Of a stretch of 64,000 nt of DNA, positions 24,445 through 64,000 are shown one piece after another. Numbering within the stretch: the first letter of the stretch is position 1; every line of letters starts with the position of its first letter. Source of the DNA: a virus. Taxonomy: Duplodnaviria; Heunggongvirae; Uroviricota; Caudoviricetes. The notes below the pieces were generated by a model. That model saw nothing but the letters and a program-made list of their open reading frames with translations, did no database searches and was not told the DNA's origin. The stretch is taken from IMG/VR virus record IMGVR_UViG_3300026382_000007. One strand, written 5' to 3'. A program made the position numbers and the translations under genes.

Positions 24445-24807
24445 ATGGGATACACATATAAATCATTGATATCAGATGGTGAATTGGTTCAAGGGAGTTC
24501 TTCTGACATAACTTTGTTTAATACAGACATGGCTGAAGATTTAAGTGTTGGATGGGAAGCGAGATACACAATCCGTGAGAAATTTGACACACCAGTAATT
24601 ATTGAGAGGGTTCTTCCGCTTAATGAAGAGATGGATGGGGTTCCAGCAAATAGTGCATTCGTGCACCAGATTATCCCAAACGAATCACAGCTTCTTACAA
24701 GCGGTAAGAAATACATCGTAACGATCCAGATCAAAAACGATACTATGCCGTACAGTGAAGAGGTTGCTCAATTTAAGCTGAAGATTCTTCCGCAAGGGGT
24801 GAACTAA
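24445..24807 (+). CDS. hypothetical protein
   Basis: 120 aa; RBS taggaggaacttATG. Confidence 0.4.
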   Translation: MGYTYKSLISDGELVQGSSSDITLFNTDMAEDLSVGWEARYTIREKFDTPVIIERVLPLNEEMDGVPANSAFVHQIIPNESQLLTSGKKYIVTIQIKNDTMPYSEEVAQFKLKILPQGVN

Positions 24808-25169
24808 TGCCAAAAGTCGAACCGAAAAAAAGCTTCTTTACGAAGTCACTGGAAAGCGGGAAGCTACTTGCAAGCACTATTATGGTGTTTTCTGCATTGT
24901 TAGTGGGCACTTGGGGAATTGTATCATCTGTGTTTATAACTAGAGCACAGGCATACGAGAAGATAGAAAAGTTGGATGTTGAGAGTTCTTATAATAAGGC
25001 ATTCCGCATTGACTCTATGATCACTCGTTATGAGCAGATACAAAAGAGACGGGAACTTACACAAGAAGAAAAGAGAGCACTGGCTCGTCTTAAAAGGGAC
25101 TTAAAGCGGACTGATCTACACATCGACTTTCTTGAAAAGAGAGTTTATGGGCAAGATACCGTTAAATAA
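24807..25169 (+). CDS. membrane-anchored coiled-coil protein
   Basis: N-terminal TM helix then charged coiled-coil. Confidence 0.4.
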   Translation: MPKVEPKKSFFTKSLESGKLLASTIMVFSALLVGTWGIVSSVFITRAQAYEKIEKLDVESSYNKAFRIDSMITRYEQIQKRRELTQEEKRALARLKRDLKRTDLHIDFLEKRVYGQDTVK

Positions 25170-25171
25170 GT

Positions 25172-25205
25172 CAATATACTATATTATACCGTAATGTAGC
25201 TTAAA
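25172..25205 (-). promoter_or_regulatory. copy of conserved promoter core in reverse orientation (minus strand)
   Basis: plus-strand atactatattataccgtaatgtagctt = reverse complement of aagctacattacggTATAATatagtat; no minus-strand gene downstream. Confidence 0.4.
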
Positions 25206-25216
25206 AGGAGCTTAAT

Positions 25217-25582
25217 TTGAGTAGGTTTACAAAACCTCTTATTGTTGAATATATTGATGGGAAAGATTGGAAGCTTCATGAAGCATTTAATTTTTACCTT
25301 GAGGGAAATCCTCATGAAATCATAACTGTTCCGAGAGGATATGTAACTGACTTTGCTTCAGTTCCAAATGTCCTAAGAATGTTCGCCAAAGATATTGAGT
25401 TATTCAATAAGGCGGCAATTCTACATGATTTCCTTTATGATGGTGAGACAAGATTCACCAGGAAAGAAAGTGACCAAATTTATCGTGATGGGATGAGAGT
25501 ATTTGGGGTCTCTGACTTTAGATCTACTATTTTTTATAAAATGTGCCGTTTATTCGGCAAATCAAGATGGGGAGGTCAATAA
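25217..25582 (+). CDS. DUF1353-family protein
   Basis: VPRGYVTDFASVP..HDFLY motif typical of DUF1353; TTG start after RBS aaaaggag. Confidence 0.5.
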   Translation: MSRFTKPLIVEYIDGKDWKLHEAFNFYLEGNPHEIITVPRGYVTDFASVPNVLRMFAKDIELFNKAAILHDFLYDGETRFTRKESDQIYRDGMRVFGVSDFRSTIFYKMCRLFGKSRWGGQ

Positions 25583-25800
25583 TGGCTACTAAGAAACAAA
25601 AAGAAGAAACTCGTAGAAAAATGATGTGGGTTGCATTATTCGCAATCGTTGCTGTAATGTTTGGAATTTTAGGACTTGTGTTCGTTGGGAAGCCAGTGGC
25701 TGATCTAGGTTTAATCGCTGGAGCATTCTTCACCTCATTAGCTGGTGTAAACGGGGCTTCATTATTTAGCAAGCCATCTACTGGTGCTGACGATGTTTAG
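25582..25800 (+). CDS. holin-like small membrane protein
   Basis: 72 aa, two predicted TM helices, charged N-term; RBS gggaggtcaataATG; precedes spanins. Confidence 0.45.
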   Translation: MATKKQKEETRRKMMWVALFAIVAVMFGILGLVFVGKPVADLGLIAGAFFTSLAGVNGASLFSKPSTGADDV

Positions 25801-26104
25801 TGTTATCACTGGAAACTTCAAACTTTATGGACTTATCGCACTTGGTGTGATTATCGCTGGGTTCTTAGTTGTATTCAAAATGCGAGGTATGAAAATCGCT
25901 GGTCTTCAAGAAAAACTTAAAGATGCAGAAGCACATATCAAAGTAGCGGTTGAAACTCAACGAAGGGCAAAAGTGGCAAGAGTCGCTGAAAAAGAGATTG
26001 AAAATGTTATTCTGGGAGCTGAGTCTAAAAAAGGTAAAGCAGAAATGGATGTTTCAAAGATTATGGAACAGTCAACAATAGAAAAGGTGTCGACGGGACT
26101 ATGA
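25793..26104 (+). CDS. i-spanin-like protein (N-terminal TM + coiled-coil)
   Basis: TM helix GLIALGVIIAGFLVVF then coiled-coil; 3' end overlaps o-spanin start (ATGA). Confidence 0.5.
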   Translation: MFSVITGNFKLYGLIALGVIIAGFLVVFKMRGMKIAGLQEKLKDAEAHIKVAVETQRRAKVARVAEKEIENVILGAESKKGKAEMDVSKIMEQSTIEKVSTGL

Positions 26105-26442
26105 AAAAGTTAATAATGTTTGTAATTTCAATTGTTATGGTGGTTGTTTTCGGTGGTTGTACTCGTACAGTTTATGTGTATCCAGAGCAAAACTTCCCGG
26201 AACTCCATGCACCGAAAAAGGTAGTGAGTGGATATGATTCTTATATCTGGCAAAAGTGCCTTTTTATCAACGATCACAACACTTCGCTGTGTAATGACGA
26301 CTTAAATAAAGTTATGACGACTGTAAAAAAGTTAAGAATTAATGAAGAGACATGCTCTAATGTGGTTGATGTTTATAATGATTATGTAAAAATTGAAAAA
26401 TCACAAACTAGAAAAGAGGATGATTATTCTTTCTGGTTTTAA
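26101..26442 (+). CDS. o-spanin-like outer-membrane lipoprotein
   Basis: lipobox VVFGGC after signal peptide; overlapping arrangement with i-spanin. Confidence 0.55.
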   Translation: MKKLIMFVISIVMVVVFGGCTRTVYVYPEQNFPELHAPKKVVSGYDSYIWQKCLFINDHNTSLCNDDLNKVMTTVKKLRINEETCSNVVDVYNDYVKIEKSQTRKEDDYSFWF

Positions 26443-37121: not shown

Positions 37122-38525
37122 ATGACACCATATGAAATCATCGAGCTTCTAAGAAGCACTTCAGGAATCAATGACAAGAGGACTATACTTAGTTCACATA
37201 AAGATAATAAAGACTTTCAGCGAGTGCTCACATATGCTCTAGACCCTCGTATTACATTCGGGATTAAAAAGCTTCCTAAATATGATTACACGGCACTAGA
37301 TTTGACACTGAATGAGGCAATTACTGAATTAATTGCACTTGAAACTCGCGAAGTTACTGGGAATGCAGCTTCTGATCTTCTTCAGGGTATTCTTGAAACT
37401 ACTTCTGAAGAAGATGCTCAGGTTATTAAGTGGATCATCGCCAAAGATTTCAAAGCTGGATTTGGCATTTCGTTGATTAATGATGAAATGGCTCCATTTA
37501 GTGTATATGAAGTTCCTTACATGGGAGCTACGAGCTACTCGCCAAAAAGAGTTGCAACTATCATGAAACAAGGGCAAGCATTTTCTGAGGTGAAAATGGA
37601 TGGTCGTTATCTAAATTGTATCGTAAACAACGGTGATGTTTTCATGGAGTCAAGAGGTGGTAAGCCAAATCCATTAATGGGTTGTCTTGAGAAAGAAGCA
37701 AGTGCACTTGCATTTGAGCTTGGATATTCGCAAGTTGCTATCAACGGTGAGCTAATGTTCAAAGGCGAAAAAGACCGTTACATTGCAAATGGTATTATCA
37801 GCTCATTTGTGTCAATGGCTCAAAAAGACTTTGACGGTGTTGATATTAGTAAGGAAATTACTAAGTTCGAAAAAAGATGGGAAATGACTCTTGATGAAGC
37901 GAAATCAAGAATCGCATTAGTGGTTTGGGATTATATCCCTCTTGAAAACTACAAGGAGCAAGTCTGGTCTAAGCCTCGTTTTGAGAGACTTGCTCGCCTT
38001 AAAAATGCTTGTGAATCAACTAACTCATTTGAACTTGTTGAATACAAAGTTGTTCATACTGAGGCTGAAGCAATTAGTCACTTCCAAGAGATGCTTGCTC
38101 GTGGCGAAGAGGGGACTATCCTGAAAGCTTGGGACGGTATTTGGAAAGACGGAAAACCTACATTTCAATGTAAAATGAAAGTTGAAATGAATGTTGACTT
38201 GAGAATTGTTGGGTTCAATTACGGAACTCCAGGAACAAAAAATGAAAAAGTGATTTCAAGCTTAGATGTTGAGTCAATGTGTGGCGGTTTAGCTACTTCA
38301 CCTGGAGGAATTAATGAAGCTGATATGCAATTTATTACTGATAATATGGACTCATTAATGGGTACAATTGTTGAAGTAAAATCTTGCGGTATTTCTCAAG
38401 ATTCAACTGGAGCTTATGCTTTACTTCATCCTGTTTTCATAAAACTTCGTGATGATAAAAACACTGGTGATGATTTGAAAACAATCATCGAAATTGATAA
38501 TATGAAAAAGGGGCTTACGAAGTAA
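37122..38525 (+). CDS. ATP-dependent DNA ligase
   Basis: KxDG motif EVKMDGRYL; 467 aa comparable to T4 DNA ligase. Confidence 0.75.
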   Translation: MTPYEIIELLRSTSGINDKRTILSSHKDNKDFQRVLTYALDPRITFGIKKLPKYDYTALDLTLNEAITELIALETREVTGNAASDLLQGILETTSEEDAQVIKWIIAKDFKAGFGISLINDEMAPFSVYEVPYMGATSYSPKRVATIMKQGQAFSEVKMDGRYLNCIVNNGDVFMESRGGKPNPLMGCLEKEASALAFELGYSQVAINGELMFKGEKDRYIANGIISSFVSMAQKDFDGVDISKEITKFEKRWEMTLDEAKSRIALVVWDYIPLENYKEQVWSKPRFERLARLKNACESTNSFELVEYKVVHTEAEAISHFQEMLARGEEGTILKAWDGIWKDGKPTFQCKMKVEMNVDLRIVGFNYGTPGTKNEKVISSLDVESMCGGLATSPGGINEADMQFITDNMDSLMGTIVEVKSCGISQDSTGAYALLHPVFIKLRDDKNTGDDLKTIIEIDNMKKGLTK

Positions 38526-38629
38526 TGTATTTCAGAAATGTTAGTAAGGAGATGAGGTTTATTCACTTTGTCTTTGGGTAAGGTGAAGTTTATTGGTAAA
38601 GATAGACGATTACGAAAAGATATTAAACT

Positions 38630-38686
38630 TAAGCAAGCTCTAAGCTTACTTTAGGTATAATATAGTATAACTAAAAAGGAGTATCA
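38630..38686 (+). promoter_or_regulatory. conserved promoter/leader cassette
   Basis: aagcaagctctaagcttactttaggTATAATatagtataactaaaaaggag; -10 38656-38661. Confidence 0.6.
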
Positions 38687-39025
38687 ATGGGAATTGAACT
38701 AATCTGGATGCCACTGGCGAAAGCCGGAATCATCTTTTTGTTGCTGGGTCTTATGACTTGGCTGTTAAGACGAAAGAACTATAAACTTGGAGGTGCTGTT
38801 GCAGTAATTCTAGCTATTATGGTGATTTTCGCTCCAATAAAGCTTACTAATAAAACGGTTCATGTGAAACAGCAAACTCAGCAAATTGCTAAGGTGATGA
38901 CGGCTGAAATACCTGAGAGGGTAGAAAGAACAAAAAGATCACTTGACGGTGCCATGGCAAAGTTCAAAGTGATCCGTGAAGAATCACAAAAAGTAATCAA
39001 TGATGAACTCAACAAAAGTAAATAA
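38687..39025 (+). CDS. small membrane protein (2 TM)
   Basis: preceded by conserved promoter; hydrophobic helices. Confidence 0.4.
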   Translation: MGIELIWMPLAKAGIIFLLLGLMTWLLRRKNYKLGGAVAVILAIMVIFAPIKLTNKTVHVKQQTQQIAKVMTAEIPERVERTKRSLDGAMAKFKVIREESQKVINDELNKSK

Positions 39026-39203
39026 GGGATTTACTCTCATGGAGCTCGTATTCATAATTATTATTTTTGGAATTTTGTCTGCTGTGGCACTTCCTAAAAT
39101 GAAACAAGCTGAACTCGATAAACAAAAAAAGGTACAGACTGAGAAATTGAAACAGTCTGGAACAACTTTCGGGAGTGGTGGAAGCACCTCTTTCTCAAAC
39201 TAA
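39003..39203 (+). CDS. type IV prepilin/pseudopilin-like protein (66 aa)
   Basis: class III signal: short basic leader ..KVNKG then FTLMELVFIIIIFGILSAVALP with Glu at +5. Confidence 0.55.
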   Translation: MNSTKVNKGFTLMELVFIIIIFGILSAVALPKMKQAELDKQKKVQTEKLKQSGTTFGSGGSTSFSN

Positions 39204-39217
39204 AATAAGGCTACACA

Positions 39218-40090
39218 ATGAAAAAAATGATTAAATCGGCGATCTTCGCTACACTTATGGGATTTATGGCACTAACAACAACTGGTTGTTCTGAAAAGGT
39301 TGAACCTGCACACAAGGGTATCAAATTAACATCAAGTGGATATGAAGCTGAAATCTACCCTCCTTCAAGAGTTTATGTGGGTTGGAGAGAAACTCTGATT
39401 CAGATTGAAACACATACATCTGCGGCAAGTGAGCAAATCACAATTCGTACTAAGGATAAAATGAACCTTAATGCTGAAATTAAATTCCGCTTAAGAGTTG
39501 ATGGTGATGATGCCACAATTCGTTCAATGTTCAATGATATCACTCCTGCTGATAATATGGTGACACTGAAATCTGTGTACTTGACATACGGTAAGATGAT
39601 CGTAAACAATGTGACTCGTGGTGTAATTGGTAAGTATGATATTGAAGATGTACAACCAAACTTCAACCGCATTAACAAAGAAATTTATGGTGAAATTCAA
39701 GCGAAGTTCAAAAACATTCCACTAGAAATTAGTGATGTTGCACTTGGAAAACTGGATTATCCTGAAGTAATTGACAAAGCAATTCTTGCTGCGGCACAAA
39801 AAACACTTGAGATTTCAAAGGCTGAGGCTGAAGTTCAAGTTGAGCTTACTAGAATTGAAGGAAAAAAACAAGTTGCGTCTGCGAAGTATGACATCAAGAT
39901 GTTAGAAGCGAAAAGAATTCGTGACTATAACATTATGATTGGGAAGGGTATTACACCAGCATTGCTTAAGCTTCGTGAGTTAGAAGTTCAAGAAACTATG
40001 GCTGAAAATATCTCAAAAGGTGACCAGATTTATATCCCATGGGGAGCAATGGGTTCAACCGGAGTTAGCAACAGAGTGTTCGGAAAGTAA
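39218..40090 (+). CDS. SPFH/band-7 (HflC/prohibitin-like) domain lipoprotein
   Basis: lipobox LTTTGC; central segment resembles SPFH domain followed by coiled-coil. Confidence 0.5.
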   Translation: MKKMIKSAIFATLMGFMALTTTGCSEKVEPAHKGIKLTSSGYEAEIYPPSRVYVGWRETLIQIETHTSAASEQITIRTKDKMNLNAEIKFRLRVDGDDATIRSMFNDITPADNMVTLKSVYLTYGKMIVNNVTRGVIGKYDIEDVQPNFNRINKEIYGEIQAKFKNIPLEISDVALGKLDYPEVIDKAILAAAQKTLEISKAEAEVQVELTRIEGKKQVASAKYDIKMLEAKRIRDYNIMIGKGITPALLKLRELEVQETMAENISKGDQIYIPWGAMGSTGVSNRVFGK

Positions 40091-40210
40091 CACACTGCTT
40101 GTGCTTTTAGAGCCACTACTCTTTAGTGGCTCAATTGAGTACAACTTGAAAAATTGTATGACCAATTTTGACTTAAATATCAGTCAACACGCAAAATAAA
40201 AGGAAAATAA

Positions 40211-49942: not shown

Positions 49943-50026
49943 GGGTTTTCAAAGTCGTTCGGATACGGCAGCAAGACTGTAAATCTTGTCTCTAGGGGAG
50001 TGGTTCGAGTCCACGGGAACCCACCA
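49943..50026 (+). tRNA. tRNA-Tyr(GTA), type II, CCA encoded
   Basis: acceptor gggtttt/ggaaccc, anticodon arm caaga-ctGTAaa-tcttg, T-loop ttcgagt. Confidence 0.7.
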
Positions 50027-50032
50027 TTACAT

Positions 50033-50109
50033 CTGGATATAGCTCAGTTTGGGAGAGCACTTGCTTTGGGAGCAAGGGGTCGTAGGTTCAATCCCTACTA
50101 TTCAGACCA
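50033..50109 (+). tRNA. tRNA-Pro(TGG), CCA encoded
   Basis: acceptor ctggata/tattcag, D gctc-agtttggga-gagc, anticodon loop ttTGGga. Confidence 0.7.
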
Positions 50110-50116
50110 TTTTTAT

Positions 50117-50190
50117 TGAGGTATAGTTCAACGGCAGAACATGCGACTTTGACTCGCATAATATAGGTTCGATCCCTATTACCTCATCCA
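50117..50190 (+). tRNA. tRNA-Gln(TTG), CCA encoded
   Basis: U1-A72 acceptor tgaggta/tacctca, anticodon loop ctTTGac. Confidence 0.7.
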
Positions 50191-50191
50191 T

Positions 50192-50266
50192 CCTTGGGTA
50201 GCTCAATGGTAGAGCAGTCGGTTGATAACCGGAAGAATTGTGGTTCAATTCCACTCCTGAGGACCA
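50192..50266 (+). tRNA. tRNA-Ile(GAT), CCA encoded
   Basis: acceptor ccttggg/cctgagg, anticodon loop ttGATaa. Confidence 0.65.
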
Positions 50267-50276
50267 ATACTAATAT

Positions 50277-50351
50277 ACCACGGTCGTCTAATGGTTAGGA
50301 CACCATACTTTCAATTTGGTAACCGGAGTTCAATTCTCCGTCGTGGTACCA
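50277..50351 (+). tRNA. tRNA-Glu(TTC), CCA encoded
   Basis: acceptor accacgg/tcgtggt; anticodon loop ctTTCaa (one stem mismatch). Confidence 0.6.
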
Positions 50352-50361
50352 GAATTACAAT

Positions 50362-50437
50362 GGGGTGTTAGCTCATCTGGGAGAGCACTAGGTTTGCAAC
50401 TTAGAGGTGCAGGGTTCGAGTCCCTGACACTCCACCA
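50362..50437 (+). tRNA. tRNA-Ala(TGC), CCA encoded
   Basis: acceptor ggggtgt with G3:U70, anticodon loop ttTGCaa. Confidence 0.8.
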
Positions 50438-50479
50438 ATTTATTATTCAGCATTCAGCCCATTAATAGTGGGTTAAATG

Positions 50480-50554
50480 GTGAGTATAGTACAATGGTTA
50501 GTACGGAGGGTTGTGAACCTTCTAATTCCAGTTCAATTCTGGATACTCACACCA
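50480..50554 (+). tRNA. tRNA-His(GTG), CCA encoded (G at -1 present)
   Basis: acceptor gtgagta/tactcac perfect, anticodon loop ttGTGaa, g at 50479. Confidence 0.75.
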
Positions 50555-50555
50555 T

Positions 50556-50630
50556 GGCTCGGTCGTCTAATGGTTAGGACAACTGGTTTTCGACCAGTTA
50601 ATCAGAGTTCAATTCTCTGTCGAGTCACCA
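50556..50630 (+). tRNA. tRNA-Glu(TTC) second copy (divergent), CCA encoded
   Basis: acceptor ggctcgg/tcgagtc, perfect anticodon stem actgg/ccagt, loop ttTTCga (G37 unusual). Confidence 0.55.
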
Positions 50631-50651
50631 ATTTATTTATAAGGCTATGAC

Positions 50652-51125
50652 ATGAAAGATATGTATATGGAAGATGTTGGCAGTTTGTCAAGTGAAACAT
50701 GTGATTTTATATCTGAAAAGCTGAAACAATTTAACACACGGCTGACTGATGAACAAGTTAAGGATCTCGTTGAGAACCAAATTTGGGACGCAGTTTTTGA
50801 AAAACTAGAAAACTTTTGTGACAATGATTACAGAAGTCAAATGGGATAAGGGGGTAATGCTGAAAAGCAACATCGTGGAGGAAGAAGTAACGGTCAATAT
50901 GTTAATGACAGTTTCGGCGAAAAAGTATTTCTTCAATCTTCTTACGAACTATTATGTTCCGAGATACTGAACGAAATGGGCATATTATGGGTTAGACCAA
51001 AATCACTTCCATATGAGATAGATGGTAAAAAGAGAAAATACTTCCCTGATTTTCTCCTAGTGGATTATGGTATCTATTTAGATCCCAAAAATGATTTTTT
51101 GATTAAAAAGATATTCCTAAAATAA
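50652..51125 (+). pseudogene. Vsr/DUF559-like PD-(D/E)XK endonuclease (homing-endonuclease-like), interrupted by in-frame TAA at 50847
   Basis: ORF 50652-50849 continues in same frame after stop; downstream segment ..YEIDGKKRKYFPDFLLVDYGIYLDPK resembles Vsr motif PGRPDFVFP. Confidence 0.4.
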
Positions 51126-51194
51126 GAGCAGTAGAAGAACAAAATGATGTTTCCGTATTCATTTTATCGAAACAAAACATAACAACAGATTTCA

Positions 51195-51270
51195 TGGCGA
51201 GTATCATAATGGCTAATGACACCACCTCATAAGTGGTTCTATGCTGGTTCAAATCCAGTCTCGCCAACCA
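51195..51270 (+). tRNA. tRNA-Met/Ile2(CAT), canonical cloverleaf, CCA encoded
   Basis: acceptor tggcgag/ctcgcca, anticodon arm accac-ctCATaa-gtggt. Confidence 0.7.
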
Positions 51271-51286
51271 AACCAAAAACAAACAT

Positions 51287-51357
51287 GCCAACCGATCAGG
51301 GATCAGTCAGTGCTCATAACACAGACCAGCTTAGATCGTTACTAAGGGTTGGCACCA
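51287..51357 (+). tRNA. atypical tRNA-like (CAT) with reduced D-arm and A54..T58 T-loop (atcgtta)
   Basis: acceptor gccaacc/ggttggc + CCA; anticodon loop ctCATaa; only ~14 nt between acceptor and anticodon stem. Confidence 0.4.
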
Positions 51358-51360
51358 AAT

Positions 51361-51434
51361 GCGGACATAGTATAAAGGGATTATGGCGGTCTTCCAAACC
51401 GTGGATGCGAGTTCGAGCCTCGCTGTCCGCTCCA
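51361..51434 (+). tRNA. tRNA-Gly(TCC), CCA encoded
   Basis: acceptor gcggaca/tgtccgc, anticodon arm gcggt-ctTCCaa-accgt. Confidence 0.65.
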
Positions 51435-51439
51435 AACAT

Positions 51440-51514
51440 ACTCGGTTATTTCAGTGGTAGAATGTCTCCCTTACAAGGAGGAGGTCGTTGGTTCGAGTCC
51501 AACACCGAGTACCA
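51440..51514 (+). tRNA. tRNA-Val(TAC), CCA encoded
   Basis: acceptor actcggt/accgagt, anticodon loop ctTACaa. Confidence 0.65.
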
Positions 51515-51528
51515 AACACAACAAACAT

Positions 51529-51604
51529 GCTCTTCTAGCTTATGTGGTACAAGCATCGGTTTGAAGAACCGAGGATTGAAGTTCAACTCTTCAGGGGAGC
51601 ACCA
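51529..51604 (+). tRNA. tRNA-Phe(GAA), CCA encoded
   Basis: acceptor gctcttc/ggggagc, D gctt..aagc, anticodon arm tcggt-ttGAAga-accga. Confidence 0.75.
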
Positions 51605-51736
51605 TATTTTAATTATAAAGGAATTATCATGAGAGATAAGGATAATAGAAAAATCACACAATCAAAAAAGTCGTACGATCGCAAGAAAGTACAAAAACAT
51701 CGTTGGCAGGATTAACATTCAATTAATCCAAAATAT

Positions 51737-51811
51737 ATGCATGTAGCTCAGAGGCAGAGCAATGGTCTCCAAAACCATAGGTCGAGATTTCGAAATTCTC
51801 CATGTATGCCA
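51737..51811 (+). tRNA. tRNA-Trp(CCA), CCA encoded
   Basis: A1-U72 acceptor atgcatg/catgtat, discriminator G, anticodon arm atggt-ctCCAaa-accat. Confidence 0.7.
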
Positions 51812-51813
51812 AT

Positions 51814-51885
51814 GCCCAAACTGACGGATTCAGACTCGAGGTTTCGACCCTTGATGTCAAGGTTCAACTCCTTGTTTGGGCTCCA
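51814..51885 (+). tRNA. tRNA-Arg(TCG)-like with short non-canonical D-arm, CCA encoded
   Basis: acceptor gcccaaa/tttgggc perfect; anticodon arm cgagg-ttTCGac-ccttg; D region only 16 nt. Confidence 0.5.
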
Positions 51886-51979
51886 CTTCAATTTACACAA
51901 TCAAAAACAAACTCAATTATCATCATTAAATATCGTCATAATATACAAAGTTCCCTGAGAAAACTCATAACTAAAATTT

Positions 51980-52005
51980 AAGAAAACTCCTGTATAATAG
52001 TAATG
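51980..52005 (+). promoter_or_regulatory. extended -10 promoter (TGnTATAAT)
   Basis: ctcctgTATAATag at 51991-51998 upstream of 52037 gene. Confidence 0.4.
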
Positions 52006-52036
52006 TTTATAACAGGATTTCCGAACAGAGGCGAAT

Positions 52037-52219
52037 ATGACAATTAAGTTCATACACAATAGAAAAACAGTTTTAGAATACACGGTTGCTAACTTAAGCG
52101 ATCCAATTGTTCCAAAAAAACACGACCAACTAGATATTGATGGTCAAAACATGGTTATTGTTGATTTTTCAGCATTCCAAGATTTAGTAGTATTCAAGGT
52201 GGAAACATGCGAAAAATAA
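52037..52219 (+). CDS. hypothetical small protein
   Basis: 60 aa; upstream TGnTATAAT promoter at 51991-51998. Confidence 0.35.
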   Translation: MTIKFIHNRKTVLEYTVANLSDPIVPKKHDQLDIDGQNMVIVDFSAFQDLVVFKVETCEK

Positions 52220-52683
52220 CACACATAATAGTTCATGAAAGTGACTCAGGATGGGGTGATGCCTCGGCTATAAATAGTTGGCATTTAGATAGAGGCTGGA
52301 ATGGTATTGGATATCACAAGGTTATCTTGAACGGAAAAAGAACCTCAAAATCAAAATATAAAGAGTCTGAAGATGGTATCATTGAGTGTGGTAGGATGCT
52401 ACATTTGAGTGGTGCTCATGCAAGAGGTTATAACAAACAATCAATTGGATTGTGTCTGATCGGAAAACATGGTAAATTCACGAGCTTACAAATGAGTACT
52501 TTAATGGATGAAATAGTCAGGCTAATGGGTGCTTATGATATCCCTACATCGAATGTATTGGGCCACTATGAAATTCCTCTTAGTGGTGGAAAAACTTGTC
52601 CGGAAATTGATATGATGATTTTCAGAAATGAATTGCAAATGAGACTTGATGCTCTTGATGCAATGAACAAATTTGGAGCATAA
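52207..52683 (+). CDS. N-acetylmuramoyl-L-alanine amidase (T7 lysozyme / PGRP family) - candidate endolysin
   Basis: IIVHESD..GYHKVI..GAHARGYNKQSIGLCLIG..HYEI..KTCPE aligns with T7 lysozyme zinc ligands and catalytic residues. Confidence 0.8.
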   Translation: MRKITHIIVHESDSGWGDASAINSWHLDRGWNGIGYHKVILNGKRTSKSKYKESEDGIIECGRMLHLSGAHARGYNKQSIGLCLIGKHGKFTSLQMSTLMDEIVRLMGAYDIPTSNVLGHYEIPLSGGKTCPEIDMMIFRNELQMRLDALDAMNKFGA

Positions 52684-52684
52684 C

Positions 52685-53239
52685 ATGTTAAAAAACACAA
52701 CAATAATTATTCAAGCACATAAGGTGATTGAACCTACATTATCTCAGGCACTAGCTATTTGCCCAAATGTCATAATTTTTAATGACAAGGCGAAATTTAA
52801 ACATGATTCGGCAACAGTTGTGAGAGGAAGAGGGTTTTCTGGAAAATATGAAGATGCATATGAAATGTGTTTACCATTAGTGCAAACAGAATTTGTTTGT
52901 AGAATAAATGGTGGAGATGAGATTTTGGATCTTCAGGAGCCAACTGGTGACATTTGGCTCGCTAGATATAATAAAGATCACCCAGACCATAAAATGGACA
53001 AAGATTATTTTAAACATGCTGGTGCTTCTATTATAAGTGGTTCAGTAATAAAAACTGAAATTATGAAAGATCTTCTTGATGGGTACACTGTTGAAAATAA
53101 GGCGAAGTGGGGAAAATTTGGAAAATATTGTGGTGATATAATTTTGAATTCAGAATTCAAAATTTCACAAGCTGAGACTCAAAGCCTAGATTTCACATTC
53201 AAAATGTGGGGTTCAAGAGAAAATTCATATAAAGTATAA
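52685..53239 (+). CDS. hypothetical protein
   Basis: RBS ggagcataacATG. Confidence 0.35.
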   Translation: MLKNTTIIIQAHKVIEPTLSQALAICPNVIIFNDKAKFKHDSATVVRGRGFSGKYEDAYEMCLPLVQTEFVCRINGGDEILDLQEPTGDIWLARYNKDHPDHKMDKDYFKHAGASIISGSVIKTEIMKDLLDGYTVENKAKWGKFGKYCGDIILNSEFKISQAETQSLDFTFKMWGSRENSYKV

Positions 53240-53466
53240 GAATTTTGTAATTCTTTTTGTGAAAAGGGGGTTTTGCTCCCTTCAACCATTAAATAGAAGT
53301 ATAAATAACAACAAGGAACTAAGATGAAGTCTGATAAAAGACCCACTTTAAGCTGTAATTTGAATTCGCTGAATTCGGATATGATTAAACTTTAGTTCAC
53401 CCTCTATCTCAGGGTGAACATTCACTCTGGGAGCAATTTTTAAATTCCCCCAAATTTCTTATCAAT

Positions 53467-53512
53467 CTTAAGTAAGCTCTAAGCTAACTTTAGGTATAAT
53501 ATACTATATGAA
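53467..53512 (+). promoter_or_regulatory. conserved promoter cassette (no obvious CDS downstream)
   Basis: aagtaagctctaagctaactttaggTATAATatactatatg; -10 53495-53500. Confidence 0.5.
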
Positions 53513-53563
53513 AAGTAAATGGTTATTCCGCTTCTTTTTATCGTTCTTTAAAGTTTATATGAT

Positions 53564-53608
53564 CTTTAAGCTGACTCTAAGTTAGTTTACGGTATAATAT
53601 AGGTAACG
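53564..53608 (+). promoter_or_regulatory. conserved promoter cassette copy (ctgactctaagttagtttacgg form) 1 of 3
   Basis: tttaagctgactctaagttagtttacggTATAATataggt; -10 53593-53598. Confidence 0.5.
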
Positions 53609-53679
53609 AAAGTTAAGTAACACGAATGAAGATTACAAAGGTTTATTTACCTTTGACTTAACTTTTAAATCTATCAAAG

Positions 53680-53724
53680 CTTTAAGCTGACTCTAAGTTA
53701 GTTTACGGTATAATATAGGTATCT
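53680..53724 (+). promoter_or_regulatory. conserved promoter cassette copy 2 of 3 (identical 38-mer)
   Basis: -10 53709-53714. Confidence 0.5.
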
Positions 53725-53863
53725 TAATAAGATGATAAGGTTTGTAAGGTGACTAAAGAGGTTCGAATCCTCCCTTGATTTTCAAGAGATTTTAAATGTT
53801 GGAAAAGTTGCCTCAACTCAGGTTCGAATCCTGACATTTTATTAAGTTTCAAATCTTTCAAAA

Positions 53864-53908
53864 CTTTAAGCTGACTCTAAGTTAGTTTACGGTATAATAT
53901 AGGATAAA
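53864..53908 (+). promoter_or_regulatory. conserved promoter cassette copy 3 of 3 driving GC-rich noncoding region
   Basis: -10 53893-53898. Confidence 0.5.
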
Positions 53909-54280
53909 CTCTTTAATCAGGGCATCGATAAGCGGTCTAAGTCTTTTGACTGTGACCGCAACACGGTGTCTTTATTAAAGAGTTTAGTGTTTAGCTGACA
54001 CGACACTCTGAGTTTTGAAGTCAGAACCTTGGGAATGTAGCATAGAGGTAAATGTAACTGCCGTGGAGGCAGAGAAGAGGGATCGTTACCCTCCTTTCTC
54101 TACAAGGGTTTTGAGTGAAAAATGTTGATCTTTTCGAGCACACTAGTCACTGCTCGAAAACTCAACATGAACGAATAGAAAGTCACTGTGCTGGGATCAC
54201 CTGGATTTCAGTGAAACTTCTAACCGAGTTTGCAAGGTAGCACCTTGCGACTCAATGAATTACGAAATTTATTATATGAT

Positions 54281-54325
54281 TAAGCTTCTTTTAAGGAAGT
54301 TTACAGTATAATAACGGTAACTTAA
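54281..54325 (+). promoter_or_regulatory. promoter variant inside noncoding region
   Basis: aagcttcttttaaggaagtttacagTATAATaacggtaactt; -10 54307-54312. Confidence 0.4.
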
Positions 54326-55805
54326 AAGGAAACTATAAGAACTTCATTAAGTTCATATCGGCATCCAGGGATAGTGTCTACTGCAAAGTATCGGCATCCG
54401 TGGCTAGTGTTTATGAATTTAATGAAGTGCTTAGTACATAATGTCTGGCTTGGTTGTAGGTTTGCCCTATGTCAACGAAGACAAAGTGGAACGGGATTTC
54501 CGGACGCATATATTCGTAAAGATACTCTCAGTAATGGGACGAAAGGGGGATTGATAATCCTTCGCGGAAGTAATTCCGAACAAGTATGCAAAACAGAAAA
54601 CTCATTAAGACATCATCACGGTGGTGTTCGAATTGAACGATGAAGTACGAACTAAACAGTCTGGCCAACGGTGACACTGTTTGATCCCGCAAGGATCTAG
54701 TACATGCAAAATTCATAAGAAATGACAAGTTTAATCTGTAGTTCATTGGTCCGAGTCGTAACTGGCAAGGGCTTATGTTCAGTCTACATGAAAAAAGTCG
54801 CAAGGCTGAGTATCGTGATGGACGGTGAAAGTAGTGTGTTGCATGAAATCACAAAAGGTGGGAAGCATTCTGAGGCTCAAAAGGCTTTGGAACTTCTGAG
54901 GGAGCCCATCTTTATCAATCCGTAATAGCTTAAAGATAAGCATTTGTATTTGGCACAAAAGATTCAGGGTCATACCTGATTACTAATAAAAAACGCAAAG
55001 TCTCCCTCACCGTCACTTGAAAGTGGCTTAAGTCTACACCCATAATGTGGGAATGAAGACATGTTGATGCTCGCAAGGCGGATATATGTTTAGTGGAAAG
55101 CAAAGTTATCCGGCTCGCACTGGAGAATGGCTCGCAAGGTCAGACTGAGTAGAACATTAGAGTAGAGTGACGGGATGCAAGAAAAGCTACTTGTTGGCGA
55201 AAGCCTAAACAAAAGCAGTCATTGGAAATACTCGACCGAAAGGATGAGTGGATAACACTGGGAAACAATAATCCAGTCAAAGGTTCCAGCTGAAAGCTAT
55301 AATCTCAGGCTTCAAAATAAACTTTAAGAGTTTATTGAAATAAATTTGTGTAGCAGTGTTCGACTCCCGACCCACACAGAGTGGGTATTAAACGGGCAAC
55401 TGTTATTGGCACTGGTGTGGGATCACGAGGATTATGAAAAGAATAATCGCAAATTTATTTCAATAAGTTCTTAATTTACTCAAAATGAAGAATGGAATGT
55501 AGGCTTATCAAGTTGAAAGTGTGAGAACTGGATGTGGAATTGGCTTATGAAACTAGAAGAAATTGTTTCTAACGAAAGTACGGATGAATGAATGAATATG
55601 AGATGCAAATTGGGTTTACCAGATAATTCTCTCCGGAACTCTTAGTAGAAAAGAACATCACTGAGGTTGTATATTCAGTGATTGACTTTCAAACTTTTAT
55701 TATATGCTTTGAATGGGTCAGAAGATAATGATGGAGGGTGCGCACCTGAAGTCAGTGATGATATGACAAATCACTTTGAAAATGATAATATTTAAGTTTT
55801 CAGAA

Positions 55806-55837
55806 GTGGTGAGGTTCGATCCCTCACCTTTGCACCA
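55806..55837 (+). ncRNA. tRNA 3'-half-like element (T-arm + acceptor 3' strand + CCA) with no matching 5' half nearby
   Basis: tgagg-ttcgatc-cctca then cctttgc-a-cca; no gcaaagg-type 5' partner found within 100 nt. Confidence 0.3.
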
Positions 55838-55851
55838 ACAAATTTTAAATG

Positions 55852-55924
55852 TGCGGGGAACAGCGGATGTAATTTGGGCTCATAACCCAGACCCTGTGGG
55901 TTCAACTCCCACCCACCGCAACCA
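55852..55924 (+). tRNA. atypical initiator-like tRNA(CAT) with reduced D-arm
   Basis: anticodon stem with three consecutive G-C pairs (ttggg/cccag), loop ctCATaa, T-arm gtggg-ttcaact-cccac, CCA; acceptor tgcgggg/caccgca with one mismatch. Confidence 0.4.
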
Positions 55925-55929
55925 AATAT

Positions 55930-56006
55930 TGTATACGATTTCTCCAGGCGAGAAAGCTTGACTGTTAATCAAGAAGTGACTGGTTCGAGTCCAGTGTATA
56001 CAGCCA
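55930..56006 (+). tRNA. tRNA-Asn(GTT), CCA encoded
   Basis: acceptor tgtatac/gtataca perfect, D tttc..gaaa, anticodon arm cttga-ctGTTaa-tcaag. Confidence 0.75.
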
Positions 56007-56021
56007 AACAACTTAAATTTA

Positions 56022-56101
56022 AGAACTCTGTCCTTGATCGGGATTAATATGGTACGAGCGGAAATGATCATCCGTGGACTGTTCGACTCAGTCGAGTTCT
56101 T
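56022..56101 (+). ncRNA. tRNA-like element, 80 nt, no CCA, fold unresolved
   Basis: perfect 7-bp acceptor agaactc/gagttct and T-arm gactg-ttcgact-cagtc; internal arms not assignable by eye. Confidence 0.3.
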
Positions 56102-56350
56102 AAATTTGGGTTGATTACCTGAAGAGTCGCTATTGTTTTCGACTCAAAAAATACACAAACACGATAGTAAGTGATCGATACACACCACTGTTGGCATATC
56201 GCACAGACGATGCAGCGAGTTCCGGCTACACAGGGCAGAGGGAAACATCTAGAAGGTTTCATCGCAATTGTACATTGTGCGATTAACAAACTAAAATGAG
56301 CAAAAACTCGACCCACTTAAAGATTTAATCAATCTCGGGTCGTTTCAAGT

Positions 56351-56427
56351 GGCCTACTAACTCAATTGGCTAGAGTGTCTCGTTGTCTGCGAGAAGGTTA
56401 TCGGTTCGAGTCCGATGTGGGTCGCCA
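56351..56427 (+). tRNA. tRNA-Asp(GTC), CCA encoded (U37 unusual)
   Basis: acceptor ggcctac/gtgggtc, D actc..gagt, anticodon arm tctcg-ttGTCtg-cgaga. Confidence 0.55.
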
Positions 56428-56935
56428 TTTTCAAAATTGAATAAAGTAACTAACTAGAGTGGGAATGCTTGGATTGAGTTCTAGCACATACCTTAATAAT
56501 GTTCTCGCATCCTTGATTTAGCGATCACGGGACAAGTACACATGCTCCTCTATGATACAATATGCATCACTTGTATCATAAATGTTTGTTATTTTATTCA
56601 GTCTTGCAAGAATAAACTGAAGTGTCGGAATATCAAGAACTGCACTATAAAGTACGATTATCTGGTGAGATGCATACTGCTGAACCTACTCTAAAAGGGT
56701 TATGGCACCAATGGAAGATCATTCTGGACGGCTCCAGACACAGACTTGAAATCTGTAGGCATTTTAAAAGCAGTGTGGGGATCGACACCTCGTTCTTCCT
56801 CCATTTTAAATATAAACATAAGGAAATACAATGAAAACGACAAAATTAACGAAAACGACAAAACTTACAGACACATCTGAAAGAGATAGTTAGGTAAAAC
56901 TAGCTATGGGGTGTGTCTTTAATAAAAATAAAGAT

Positions 56936-57010
56936 GCATCCGAAGCTTAGTTGGCGAAGCACACGACTTTTAATCGTGGGAACAGAGTTCGATTCTCTGC
57001 GGTTGCACCA
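56936..57010 (+). tRNA. tRNA-Lys(TTT), CCA encoded
   Basis: acceptor gcatccg/cggttgc (one mismatch), anticodon arm cacga-ctTTTaa-tcgtg. Confidence 0.65.
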
Positions 57011-57018
57011 TTCAATGT

Positions 57019-57094
57019 GGATGTGTAACTCAATTGGCAGAGTACTCGGCTTTTAACCGAGAGGTTGTGGGATCATTGCCCACCGCATCCACCA
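57019..57094 (+). tRNA. tRNA-Lys(TTT) second divergent copy with A54..T58 T-loop (atcattg)
   Basis: acceptor ggatgtg/cgcatcc, anticodon arm ctcgg-ctTTTaa-ccgag. Confidence 0.55.
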
Positions 57095-57095
57095 T

Positions 57096-57170
57096 GCTTA
57101 ATTAGTATAGTGGCGATTATCCTCGTTTTGTAATCGAGGGACAGGTGTTCGATTCACCTATTAAGCTCCA
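57096..57170 (+). tRNA. tRNA-Thr(TGT), CCA encoded
   Basis: acceptor gcttaat/attaagc perfect; anticodon loop ttTGTaa; weak D-stem. Confidence 0.55.
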
Positions 57171-57182
57171 AATTTTTAAAAT

Positions 57183-57259
57183 GCCGGATTAGCTCCAACT
57201 GGAAGAGCATTTCACTTGTAATGAAAGGGCTATCTGTTCGAATCAGATATCCGGCACCA
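57183..57259 (+). tRNA. tRNA-Thr(TGT) second copy, CCA encoded
   Basis: acceptor gccggat/atccggc perfect, D gctc..gagc, anticodon arm tttca-ctTGTaa-tgaaa. Confidence 0.7.
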
Positions 57260-57744
57260 TTTATAGTATAAAGAACATTTTGGTGATTTTTGTACTGTTA
57301 AATGTTCACACTAAATCAAAAACAATGGTAGGGTAAATGAGTATGCATGCTTCCGCTCATCAGTCCAGAAAATTGAGAAGTGTAAAAAGGTCTATTGTAG
57401 CCTCAGAACCTTGAAAGGGAGAGGGAATATGCCTTGGAGATATCCAAAAGCTTTTTGGCGAAAATTTGTGCAAAACAAAATCCGCTCCAATCAACTCAAT
57501 TATATACAAGGGATTTTATAACAGTCACCTGATCTTGTATATAATTGAGCGGATTTCGACCTAAATGATTGCCTCCGACTTCAACAAGACAAAGGCTCAA
57601 GAAAATCATTTGTTAGGGTTGTGCCCATCTTACACGGTTCTTGTTCCGGTGTAGGCTCTGGGGAACTCTCTGAGTCGTCCGCTCCAACAAACGACTGCCC
57701 TCTATTTGAACTTATTGTAAGGTCATTCAACGGTGGTTTTTTAT

Positions 57745-57831
57745 GCTTCTCTGGTGGAATTGGTATACACGGTGGTCTTAGAAACCACTGCTCGAAAGGG
57801 CTTCCGAGTTCGAGTCTCGGGGGAAGCACCA
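57745..57831 (+). tRNA. tRNA-Leu(TAG), type II, CCA encoded
   Basis: acceptor gcttctc/gggaagc, anticodon arm gtggt-ctTAGaa-accac, variable hairpin gctc-gaaa-gggc. Confidence 0.7.
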
Positions 57832-57865
57832 TAATTTTTATTATAAACTAAAACAAGGAAGGCAA

Positions 57866-57979
57866 ATGTCGCACATAAATGCAAAAATTGCTGAACTTGA
57901 GAAAGACGGTAAACGAGAAAACATAGATTTTCGTATAGTATATTTTTCAGAATCAGCAGAATTAAAAATGTTGAAATAA
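57866..57979 (+). CDS. small protein (37 aa), below the ORF-track cutoff
   Basis: RBS aaggaaggcaaATG; MSHINAKIAELEKDGKRENIDFRIVYFSESAELKMLK. Confidence 0.25.
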   Translation: MSHINAKIAELEKDGKRENIDFRIVYFSESAELKMLK

Positions 57980-58103
57980 CAAAATTCAAAAAAGGAGTCA
58001 CGAATGTTGACAAGGTTAAGATCATTATCAAGATGTTTATGTTTAAGATTATTGTCAATTCGTGATGGATTGAGTTGTAGCTAAACTGCTATAATTTCAA
58101 TTC

Positions 58104-58189
58104 GGATAGTGCAAGCAAGGTGCTTAAGGTGGTTGCTAACCACTGGGGTGTAAACAGCCTGATGGGTTCAATTCCCATACTATCCTCCA
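58104..58189 (+). tRNA. tRNA-Ser(GCT), type II, CCA encoded
   Basis: acceptor ggatagt/actatcc perfect, anticodon arm ggtgg-ttGCTaa-ccact, long variable arm. Confidence 0.65.
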
Positions 58190-58280
58190 TCTTCAATTAG
58201 TACATTCAGTACAACCTTCAAAAACACAAACACTTTATTATTCATTCACAAATTTACTTGGTTATTCAAGCAACACATAT

Positions 58281-58367
58281 GCTCTCATGGTGGAATTGGC
58301 ATACACAATGGACTTAAAATCCATGGCTCGGAAGGGCTTCTCGGTTCAAATCCGAGTGGGAGCACCA
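58281..58367 (+). tRNA. tRNA-Leu(TAA), type II, CCA encoded (no intron)
   Basis: acceptor gctctca/tgggagc, anticodon arm atgga-ctTAAaa-tccat, variable hairpin gctc-ggaa-gggc. Confidence 0.7.
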
Positions 58368-58381
58368 TACTAAACAAATGT

Positions 58382-58457
58382 GCCGATGTACTTCAACGGA
58401 TAGAAATTCCGACTTCTAATCGGAAAGTTGGGGGTTCAAGCCCCTCCATCGGTACCA
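58382..58457 (+). tRNA. tRNA-Arg(TCT), CCA encoded
   Basis: acceptor gccgatg/catcggt, anticodon arm tccga-ctTCTaa-tcgga. Confidence 0.65.
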
Positions 58458-58458
58458 T

Positions 58459-58533
58459 GTATGATTGGCCAAATGGTAAGGCACGGGATTGCAAATCCTG
58501 AGATTGTCAGTTCGAGTCTGACATCATGCTCCA
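58459..58533 (+). tRNA. tRNA-Cys(GCA), CCA encoded
   Basis: acceptor gtatgat/atcatgc, anticodon arm cggga-ttGCAaa-tcctg. Confidence 0.65.
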
Positions 58534-63705: not shown

Positions 63706-64000
63706 TGGCAAGTATGGAATATTGTATGTTTGAAAACACACAAGCGGAAATGGAGCAAGTTGTAAATGCTCTTCAAGAGGGTATAAAGCTCGGTGACAGA
63801 GAGATGTCAGCTTATCGTTCATTAGTTGAACTATGTGAACAATTCGGGGAATGTCCTGATCCGATTGAAGATTATGAAGATGATATCTATGTCGAATGCA
63901 GCGATCCTGATTGTGAAGATGATATCTATGTCGAATGCAGCGATCCTGATTGTGAAGATGATATCTATGTCGAATGCAGCGATCCTGATTGTGAGGGATG
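63705..64000 (+). CDS. acidic Cys-containing repeat protein (3' end outside window)
   Basis: TAATG overlap; contains 3 tandem copies of EDDIYVECSDPDC encoded by a 39-bp repeat. Confidence 0.4.
   Translation, partial: MASMEYCMFENTQAEMEQVVNALQEGIKLGDREMSAYRSLVELCEQFGECPDPIEDYEDDIYVECSDPDCEDDIYVECSDPDCEDDIYVECSDPDCEG
63887..63996 (+). repeat. 39-bp tandem repeat (about 3 copies, continues to window edge)
   Basis: gaagatgatatctatgtcgaatgcagcgatcctgattgt repeated. Confidence 0.9.

Follow-up and report, generated by a model that had tools for sequence, protein, structure and literature searches.

A prepilin-like mini-peptide encoded between a two-transmembrane protein and an SPFH lipoprotein in phages

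Why would a phage encode a peptide that starts like a type IV prepilin but lacks the globular head of a pilin? This question is raised by a 64,000-nucleotide (nt) stretch of DNA from a tailed phage (Caudoviricetes; IMG/VR record IMGVR_UViG_3300026382_000007), called the window hereafter, in which a DNA ligase gene and ribonucleotide reductase genes flank three consecutive + strand open reading frames (ORFs) in head-to-tail order (Table 1). As an original prediction had proposed, these ORFs encode a protein with two transmembrane segments (2-TM protein), a prepilin-like mini-peptide and a lipoprotein with an SPFH (band 7) domain. The peptide gene is real: its signal motif is under purifying selection, it occurs among the loci surveyed exclusively between the other two genes, it has been inherited together with one clade of the SPFH proteins, and its C-terminal motif is shared with other peptides encoded at the same position; the neighbouring lipoprotein has the SPFH fold. 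The favoured answer, to which a probability of roughly 0.4 may be given, is that the peptide is a headless pilin, processed by a host peptidase, which is an accessory or adaptor subunit in an SPFH assembly that faces the periplasm, and which couples this assembly to type IV filament machinery. Such an answer infers the processing, topology, complex formation, target and phenotype of the peptide.

The peptide, its start and its selection

The peptide reads MMNSTKVNKG/FTLMELVFIIIIFGILSAVALPK... (the slash marks the predicted cleavage site), in which a basic leader ending in Gly at position -1 is followed by FTLMEL. The predicted mature peptide carries Phe+1, Glu+5, Gly+14 and Pro+22; its hydrophobic helix, VFIIIIFGILSAVALPK, has the Gly14/Pro22 kink, and a tail of ~34 amino acids (aa) with GTTF...TSFSN follows. 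Its scores lie above the cut-offs of both Pfam N_methyl PF07963 (E=6.8e-6; 25.9 bits, cut-off 21.2) and NCBIfam TIGR02532 IV_pilin_GFxxxE (19.6 bits, cut-off 16.3), and it matches PHROG 3433 'pilin' at 3e-8. No C-terminal globular alpha-beta head was found: the ~34 residues after Pro+22 are polar and of low complexity, and the family-specific NCBIfam pilin models align over only their N-terminal 40-50 positions, with scores far under their cut-offs. The best matches of the peptide in PDB are Geobacter PilA-N 'geopilin' chains of 61 residues, which are subunits of filaments, so the original argument that the peptide is too short for a structural pilin does not hold. In a search for a phage-encoded prepilin peptidase, no ORF with more than two transmembrane (TM) segments was found in the 64-kb window.

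The start of this gene needs some care. The ribosome binding site (RBS) ahead of position 39000 is weak, and public gene calls begin the peptide at Met39039 to give 54 aa, a start that lies downstream of the predicted cleavage site and hides the signal. In the related locus L031, whose peptide (P0083) is 82 % identical, the position of Met39039 is taken by Ile in the presence of the same MMNSTK leader, and thus the leaderless 54-aa start is rejected as a general one and the upstream start is taken as the conserved start. The ratio of non-synonymous to synonymous differences per site (pN/pS) between the two loci is 0.24 over the entire ORF and falls to 0.08 in codons 1-16, which cover the leader and the motif. 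The codons for the motif residues G, F, T, L, E and L all differ synonymously, and the other two frames over the gene are full of stop codons. Together, the low pN/pS, the synonymous motif codons and the stop-filled frames are strong evidence, at the level of sequence, that the leader and the motif are translated and selected. In the same comparison the module is seen to contain a sharp mosaic produced by recombination: the last ~100 nt of the peptide gene and the spacer to the SPFH gene (39098-39217) are 100 % identical to L031, and the 5' half of the peptide gene has a pS of ~0.7.

Nine variants of the peptide have been collected from metagenomic phages. They are 55-70 aa long and 29-82 % identical in the alignment, and in all nine Phe+1, Glu+5, Phe+8, Leu+16 and Pro+22 are invariant and the C-terminal G-T-T-(W/F) motif is present. 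Gly+14 is found in eight and replaced by Phe in that of locus L013; two of the nine, those of L038 and L039, have Ala at position -1. In pilins, Glu5 is not needed for cleavage and is required for assembly. With scores above the family cut-offs, conservation of both gene and motif, and purifying selection, the class III signal that was originally noticed is genuine.

The leader overlaps the end of the 2-TM gene in six of the nine variants, with the codon for position -1 starting 2 nt past the 2-TM stop codon in five and 5 nt past it in L015, an arrangement that suggests translational coupling. A frameshift fusion of the 2-TM protein with the peptide was considered and rejected, since the genes are separate, with their own MRLG starts, in L008 and L010, and also because a fusion would invert the topology of the peptide. 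When a word index was searched with the 67-aa peptide, only one relative and the shortened call of the peptide itself came up, and PADLOC-DB gave no match for the peptide or the SPFH protein.

The two-gene core and its slot

The identification of the downstream neighbour as an SPFH lipoprotein has been borne out. It matches Pfam Band_7 at 7.9e-15 (55.8 bits, cut-off 23.6) and PHROG 200 'lipoprotein' at 1.6e-39, and a profile search also reaches flotillin and prohibitin. Its AlphaFold2 (AF2) model, with a mean predicted local distance difference test score (pLDDT) of 83.7, consists of the SPFH domain, a 60-residue CC1 helix (183-242), CC2 (247-266) and a flexible tail (267-290). In Foldseek this model matches the subunits of prohibitin, HflK/C, stomatin and erlin cages over its full length (E 2.5e-14 to 1e-10), the alignments to PHB1/2 and HflK/C covering 257-294 columns (E 2.5e-14 to 5e-13). 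As modelled, the monomer shows every architectural element of the SPFH proteins that form cages or rings. The membrane anchor consists of a signal peptide and a Cys, as in 68 of 68 family members inspected.

The upstream 2-TM protein has hydrophobic segments at residues ~5-27 and 33-51 in its hydropathy profile, with the basic loop RRKNYK between them, followed by a polar tail of ~60 aa. The predicted topology is N-out/C-out, with a cytoplasmic RRKNYK loop and a helical tail in the periplasm. By the positive-inside rule, this tail, the tail of the pilin-like peptide and the lipoprotein would all face the periplasm. The pN/pS of the 2-TM gene against L031 is 0.17. The AF2 model is of low confidence (pLDDT 65.7) and all-helical, being composed of a hairpin and two tail helices. 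No Pfam family, NfeD and Imm included, is matched above threshold. An NfeD-like identity is rejected, as no member of the family matches Pfam NfeD and the model, with the low pLDDT given above, is all-helical; a T4 Imm-type identity is also rejected, as Imm_superinfect gave no Pfam match at E<=1 among nine family members. PADLOC gave one weak match of the TM type (E=0.012) for this protein. Searches with its single sequence returned four relatives in a word index and eight in an exhaustive library.

The original prediction also regarded such envelope proteins as unusual in phages, which turned out to be incorrect. By tblastn, the SPFH lipoprotein was found in 87 phage records, which include PAK_P3-like phages, PS119XW/PA1C-like jumbo Pseudomonas phages and phages of Erwinia, Aeromonas and Klebsiella, at 35-41 % identity over the full length; the family has its own PHROG (200), and the viral structure library BFVD contains many viral SPFH proteins. 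Prepilin-type N-termini, for their part, occur in 90-112 phage records. In PS119XW (gp316, gp317) and PAK_P3 (gp040, gp041), the SPFH gene is directly preceded by the gene for a polar-tailed 2-TM protein of 116-121 aa. The published text on the transcriptomes of PAK_P3 and PAK_P4 places the SPFH region outside both the stated early and late blocks, with no resolution at the level of genes. In PhiSH19 (L032, JN126049), an unannotated 72-aa 2-TM ORF (1432-1650, - strand) abuts the gene for a more distant SPFH lipoprotein; it is counted as a different small 2-TM ORF, with no homology to the present family implied. It is the real neighbour there, and the 'superinfection exclusion protein' annotated upstream of the SPFH gene is soluble, acidic and unrelated.

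Loci were gathered from public assemblies, IMG/VR and JGI metagenomes, and the census is made up of 69 non-redundant SPFH loci in which 450 nt or more precede the SPFH gene. A search of IMG/VR with the single SPFH protein found none, and an alignment-based query recovered the loci. The peptide and the 2-TM proteins diverge too fast for single-sequence searches, and the census therefore relied on synteny. A match to the hidden Markov model (HMM) of the 2-TM family lies beside the SPFH gene in 48 of the 69 loci: it abuts or overlaps that gene in 26, is separated from it by a gap in 20, and is located directly downstream in two. The 21 loci with no such match belong mostly to the most divergent SPFH clade. 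From these matches and from the cultured phages, the 2-TM/SPFH pair is a widespread and conserved phage module. Within the scans made, this SPFH subfamily was found in phage and metagenome contigs only; a scan of genome contigs with a single peptide pattern found no bacterial copy, which is weak evidence of absence.

A relaxed regular expression for the class III signal was run on both strands and in all frames over ~2.5 kb on either side of the SPFH gene in all 69 loci. It matches in eight of them (the window, L006, L008, L010, L013, L015, L038 and L039; L031 provides the ninth variant), and every one of the eight matches falls between the 2-TM and SPFH genes. All eight loci belong to one clade of the SPFH tree, where the peptide follows the branching and its carriers are interspersed with members that have no peptide, which implies co-inheritance over ~50 % SPFH divergence with several losses. 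The prepilin-like peptide is thus a genuine and conserved accessory of the 2-TM/SPFH module.

The slot between the two genes also accommodates other membrane proteins, namely 2-TM hairpins (69-93 aa) and proteins of 117-131 aa with a signal peptide. Two hairpin-TM peptides of the slot that have no class III signal end in DDTTEWE (L053) and DDTTDWH (L015), the same tail, with a TT(E/D)W motif, as in the prepilin-like peptides; from these non-pilin peptides, the tail is a shared element specific to the module and the anchor is exchangeable. In L006 (3875-4000), another frame past the stop codon of the peptide encodes ...TTKFGSDISDTKFSN, which repeats the C-terminal motif and suggests a tandem duplication or a frameshifted extension. 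A conserved single-TM mini-ORF of 32-33 aa is inserted between the 2-TM and prepilin-like genes in L008 (2604-2705, MEYILPIGCIIWLIG...) and L010 (2626-2724, MMESLNYTIPVIAILW...), and a further TM ORF precedes the SPFH gene (39-42 aa in L010, 32 aa in L008). With these extra mini-ORFs, the slot can hold up to three mini-peptides.

Short prepilin-like ORFs also stand alone in T4-like phages of Vibrio and Aeromonas: KVP40.0030 (L035 1989-2189, 66 aa), F86_0060 of a Vibrio phage (L036 1986-2171, 61 aa) and Aeh1 ORF040c (L034 1995-2081, 28 aa). All three adjoin td or nrd genes, with no SPFH gene within ~2 kb on either side. Prepilin-like proteins of 55-70 aa are a recurrent class of phage peptides, which gene callers start at the wrong position or leave unnamed. 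In the literature, no description of bacteriophage-encoded pilin-like peptides and no study of phage SPFH lipoproteins were found.

Table 1. Features of the module and of other parts of the window
Feature	Position	Strand	Basis or remark
NAD-related ORF, 527 aa	33619-35202		C-terminal part matches nicotinamide-nucleotide adenylyltransferase PHROG
Small one-TM ORFs (120, 77, 103 aa) and lipoprotein-like ORF	24807-26442		lipoprotein-like ORF of 113 aa at 26101-26442, ...VVFGGC
DNA ligase gene	37122-38525		
Terminator-like hairpin, 3' of DNA ligase gene	38562-38587	+	consensus scan; 11-pair stem, T-rich tail
Promoter-like cassette element TTAAGCAAGCTCTAAGCTTACT-TTAGGTATAATATAG	38628-38665	+	TATAAT hexamer at 38656-38661; 15-mer TTAGGTATAATATAG at 38651-38665
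Copies of the cassette	30787, 36682, 38651, 43028, 48601, 53490, 53588, 53704, 53888, 59114, 61736, 63491	+	
2-TM partner protein, 112 aa	38687-39025	+	ORF; RBS AAGGAG upstream
Prepilin-like mini-peptide	39000-39203 (67 aa, MM start) or 39003-39203 (66 aa)	+	class III signal
Leader of the peptide	39000-39029	+	39000-39025 overlap the last part of the 2-TM gene
Mature peptide (predicted), 57 aa	39030-39200	+	
SPFH (band 7) lipoprotein, 290 aa	39218-40090	+	signal peptide; lipobox ...LTTTG/C24
Codon of lipobox Cys24	39287-39289	+	
Stem-loop, 3' of SPFH stop codon	40110-40132 (extended 40100-40143)	+	stable; 9-bp GC-rich stem
Ribonucleotide reductase genes	40211 onward		
tRNA genes (26)	49943-58533	+	three clusters
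39-nt tandem repeat, right end of the window	63870-63994		3.2 copies, 98 % identical; in an ORF of repeated KMISMSNAAILIV units

Possible roles of the peptide

According to the favoured reading, the trio would build a single membrane assembly that faces the periplasm and is expressed from a promoter cassette of its own, with a core of the lipid-anchored SPFH protein and the small 2-TM protein and, in this lineage, the 57-residue headless type IV pilin as a third subunit. The peptide would be inserted as a prepilin, cut by the host prepilin peptidase, which would probably N-methylate it as well, and kept anchored in the inner membrane through its pilin alpha1-N helix, and its short periplasmic tail ending in GTT(F/W) would dock on the SPFH/2-TM module. 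Because Glu+5, Gly+14 and Pro+22 have been kept, the helix would most likely still engage host pilins or the assembly platform of the type IV pilus (T4P), the type II secretion system (T2SS) or competence. As an adaptor, the peptide would couple type IV filament machinery to the SPFH scaffold or sequester the machinery there. The likely outcome would be interference with the dynamics of pili or secretion, which might, for instance, exclude pilus-dependent phages or prevent the uptake of DNA. A subunit or adaptor is preferred to a free poison because the peptide is found only in the 2-TM/SPFH slot and because its C-terminal motif is common to slot peptides that are not pilin-like.

Several points weigh against this reading. 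A single origin together with limited divergence could account in part for the invariance of Glu+5 and Pro+22. In most members Ser, Asn or Gly follows the lipid-modified Cys of the SPFH protein (Asp in 3 of 61), Ser being the residue in the protein of the window, and the E. coli Lol rule on this residue would send the protein to the outer membrane, away from a peptide in the inner membrane. As the peptides of KVP40, F86 and Aeh1 have no adjacent SPFH gene, the pilin part may act alone. The peptide is an accessory, since most modules (61 of 69 loci) do without it. Finally, the reason for the presence of SPFH lipoproteins in phage genomes has been described as unclear in a 2026 paper (PMC13239085).

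The most serious rival, which is possible though on balance unlikely, takes the peptide as a plain structural subunit, the class III signal being only a compact N-in/C-out anchor with a removable leader and no link to pili. The module would then act in membrane stabilisation, control of an FtsH-type protease, exclusion of DNA injection or timing of lysis. The variety of small membrane proteins in the slot, the leaderless hairpin peptides with the same C-terminal tail and the predominance of modules with no pilin-like subunit all fit this idea, as does the fact that membrane proteins such as FtsH are found inside solved SPFH cages and that QmcA pairs with the NfeD protein YbbJ (7vhq, 7wi3, 9cz2, 8z5g). 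However, a generic anchor would need neither the buried Glu+5, Gly+14 and Pro+22 nor dependence on a host peptidase, and yet Glu+5 and Pro+22 are invariant, and Gly+14 nearly so, at 29-45 % identity; for this reason the adaptor role is favoured.

A further, rather doubtful possibility elaborates the adaptor role into a modular periplasmic capture device, in which the SPFH cage and its 2-TM partner would be given their specificity by exchangeable mini-peptides with a common docking motif. The headless pilin would be the bait that pulls the T4P, T2SS or competence platform, or the pool of pilins, into the cage and so shuts it down. If true, superinfection exclusion or host takeover would gain a new mechanism, and viral SPFH proteins would be assigned a function for the first time.

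It is unlikely that the peptide is the free-standing pilin decoy or poison suggested originally, which would be processed by PilD and enter or cap the filaments of T4P, T2SS or competence, or titrate PilD or the platform, its gene merely hitch-hiking in a permissive slot. The invariant Glu+5 and Pro+22, the nearly invariant Gly+14 and the missing globular head would suit a decoy, the 61-66 aa peptides of KVP40 and F86 stand alone with no adjacent SPFH gene, and the two variants with Ala at -1 could be slowly cleaved traps for the peptidase. Inhibition of T4P by phages for superinfection exclusion is, moreover, well known (PMC8764522, PMC12378983). A pure decoy is nevertheless not expected to be confined to the 2-TM/SPFH slot in eight of eight loci and co-inherited with one SPFH clade, to have its leader overlapping the 2-TM gene, or to share its C-terminal motif with non-pilin peptides of the slot.

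Polymerisation of the short pilin by host machinery into a thin, phage-directed pilus or pseudopilus, for secretion, adhesion or use as a receptor, is quite improbable. The nearest PDB structures are indeed filament-forming short pilins, Geobacter PilA-N, and assembly of viral pilins by host machinery has been documented for the archaeal virus SNJ2 (PMC12426801), but a PilA-C-like partner gene is absent and the SPFH lipoprotein gene lies downstream instead, the tail is short and of low complexity, and the weak RBS with a coupled start is unlike that of a highly expressed major pilin. A non-functional ORF, arising by chance or by decay of a captured host pilin gene, is hardly credible: the 54-aa public calls, the weak RBS and the truncated 28-aa version in Aeh1 might point to it, but the nine intact variants across ~50 % SPFH divergence, the pN/pS of 0.24 with synonymous changes in the motif codons and the fixed position of the gene speak against it.

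SPFH lipoproteins of PHROG 200 are among the commoner accessory proteins of phages, and they can now be seen as one half of a conserved pair with the 2-TM partner. Small membrane peptides have a hot-spot in the interval between these two genes, where one clade uses a headless type IV pilin, and this pilin gives a concrete and testable handle on the target of the module. If short prepilin-like peptides interfere with pili, secretion or competence, this matters for competition between phages, for horizontal gene transfer and for the use of phage therapy on piliated pathogens. The parts come from known families; what is new is the three-part arrangement and the slot for exchangeable peptides with a shared tail motif, both of which are undescribed.

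Genomic setting and known systems

The module is placed in the DNA-metabolism (non-structural) part of a novel phage of virulent type. The identity of the window's ligase to its counterpart in Cellulophaga phage phi4:1 is only 40 %, and that of a large conserved protein is no higher than 29 %; megablast of the module region against the phage collection gave no match. The hairpin behind the ligase gene is the upstream boundary of the three-gene unit. A single cassette promoter had been claimed for the module, and the element in front of it is indeed repeated: the 15-mer TTAGGTATAATATAG has 17 matches with up to three mismatches in place of the 3.0 expected from shuffles, no shuffle having reached 17. 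In the aligned copies it is the core of a conserved block of ~45 nt, TTAAGCnnGCTCTAAGyTnnyT-TTAGGTATAATATAG-TATA, which occurs in at least 12 copies on the + strand upstream of gene cassettes, four of them bunched at 53.5-53.9 kb. By eye, the cassette has a perfect TATAAT with no sigma-70-type -35 hexamer at 17 nt, and because of this a phage factor or an upstream element may be needed. The sequence supports the view of a single three-gene unit headed by a repeated promoter-like element. At the other end, the stem-loop has a predicted folding free energy of -23.2 kcal/mol (z = -3.79), and none of 200 shuffles was equally stable. It has no T-run and was therefore missed by the terminator scan; it is probably a 3' boundary or an RNA-stabilising hairpin.

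Elsewhere in the window, the 26 tRNA genes, all on one strand, are unusually many for a phage contig of 155 kb. The small one-TM ORFs with the lipoprotein-like ORF look like a lysis cassette of the holin/spanin type, separate from the SPFH module, and the 527-aa ORF is a possible auxiliary gene for NAD salvage. A tandem repeat was found at the right end (Table 1).

Like type IV pilins and T2SS pseudopilins (PF07963/TIGR02532), the peptide has a basic leader ending in Gly, Phe+1, Glu+5 and an alpha1-N helix with Gly14 and Pro22. Unlike them, it has no globular head, is phage-encoded outside any pilus or T2SS cluster, is sandwiched in an SPFH module, and ends in a GTT(F/W) tail that is not a feature of pilins. 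The nearest solved structures, those of Geobacter PilA-N (PDB 2M7G, 6VK9, 7TGG, 9EGP), have a similar mature length of ~57-61 residues. In the split pilin PilA-N/PilA-C of Geobacter, the counterpart is a PilA-C head, whereas the gene downstream of the phage peptide encodes the SPFH lipoprotein.

A class III signal and reliance on host machinery are also features of the viral proteins PilA1/2 of the haloarchaeal virus SNJ2, KVP40.0030 and F86_0060. The SNJ2 proteins are full pilins that form surface filaments, and the vibriophage peptides are of similar size (61-66 aa) but are not adjacent to an SPFH gene. Among small phage inhibitors of T4P (PfsE; also Tip and Aqs1), PfsE is a 30-aa protein of the inner membrane that blocks T4P by binding to PilC (PMC8764522). 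It resembles the present peptide as a tiny phage membrane peptide, with T4P as the proposed target of the latter, but is set apart, independently of any sequence comparison, by being neither pilin-like nor in need of a prepilin peptidase nor linked to SPFH proteins.

The SPFH lipoprotein shares with HflK/C, prohibitin, stomatin and erlin cages the SPFH domain, the long CC1/CC2, the C-terminal tail and a structural match over the full length, and it is predicted to face the periplasm as HflK/C do. It differs from the solved cages in that the anchor is a lipobox Cys in place of a TM helix and that the identity is only 13-18 %. Its closest relatives are the phage lipoproteins of PHROG 200 from jumbo and N4-like phages (PAK_P3 gp041, PS119XW gp317), which are direct homologues with the same upstream 2-TM gene, although no prepilin-like peptide separates the two genes in the cultured members that were examined. 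The arrangement also recalls the SPFH-NfeD operon (QmcA-YbbJ, PDB 8Z5G), in which a small membrane partner is encoded immediately adjacent to the SPFH protein, but the phage partner is, in its low-confidence model, an all-helical 2-TM protein without the OB-fold of NfeD.

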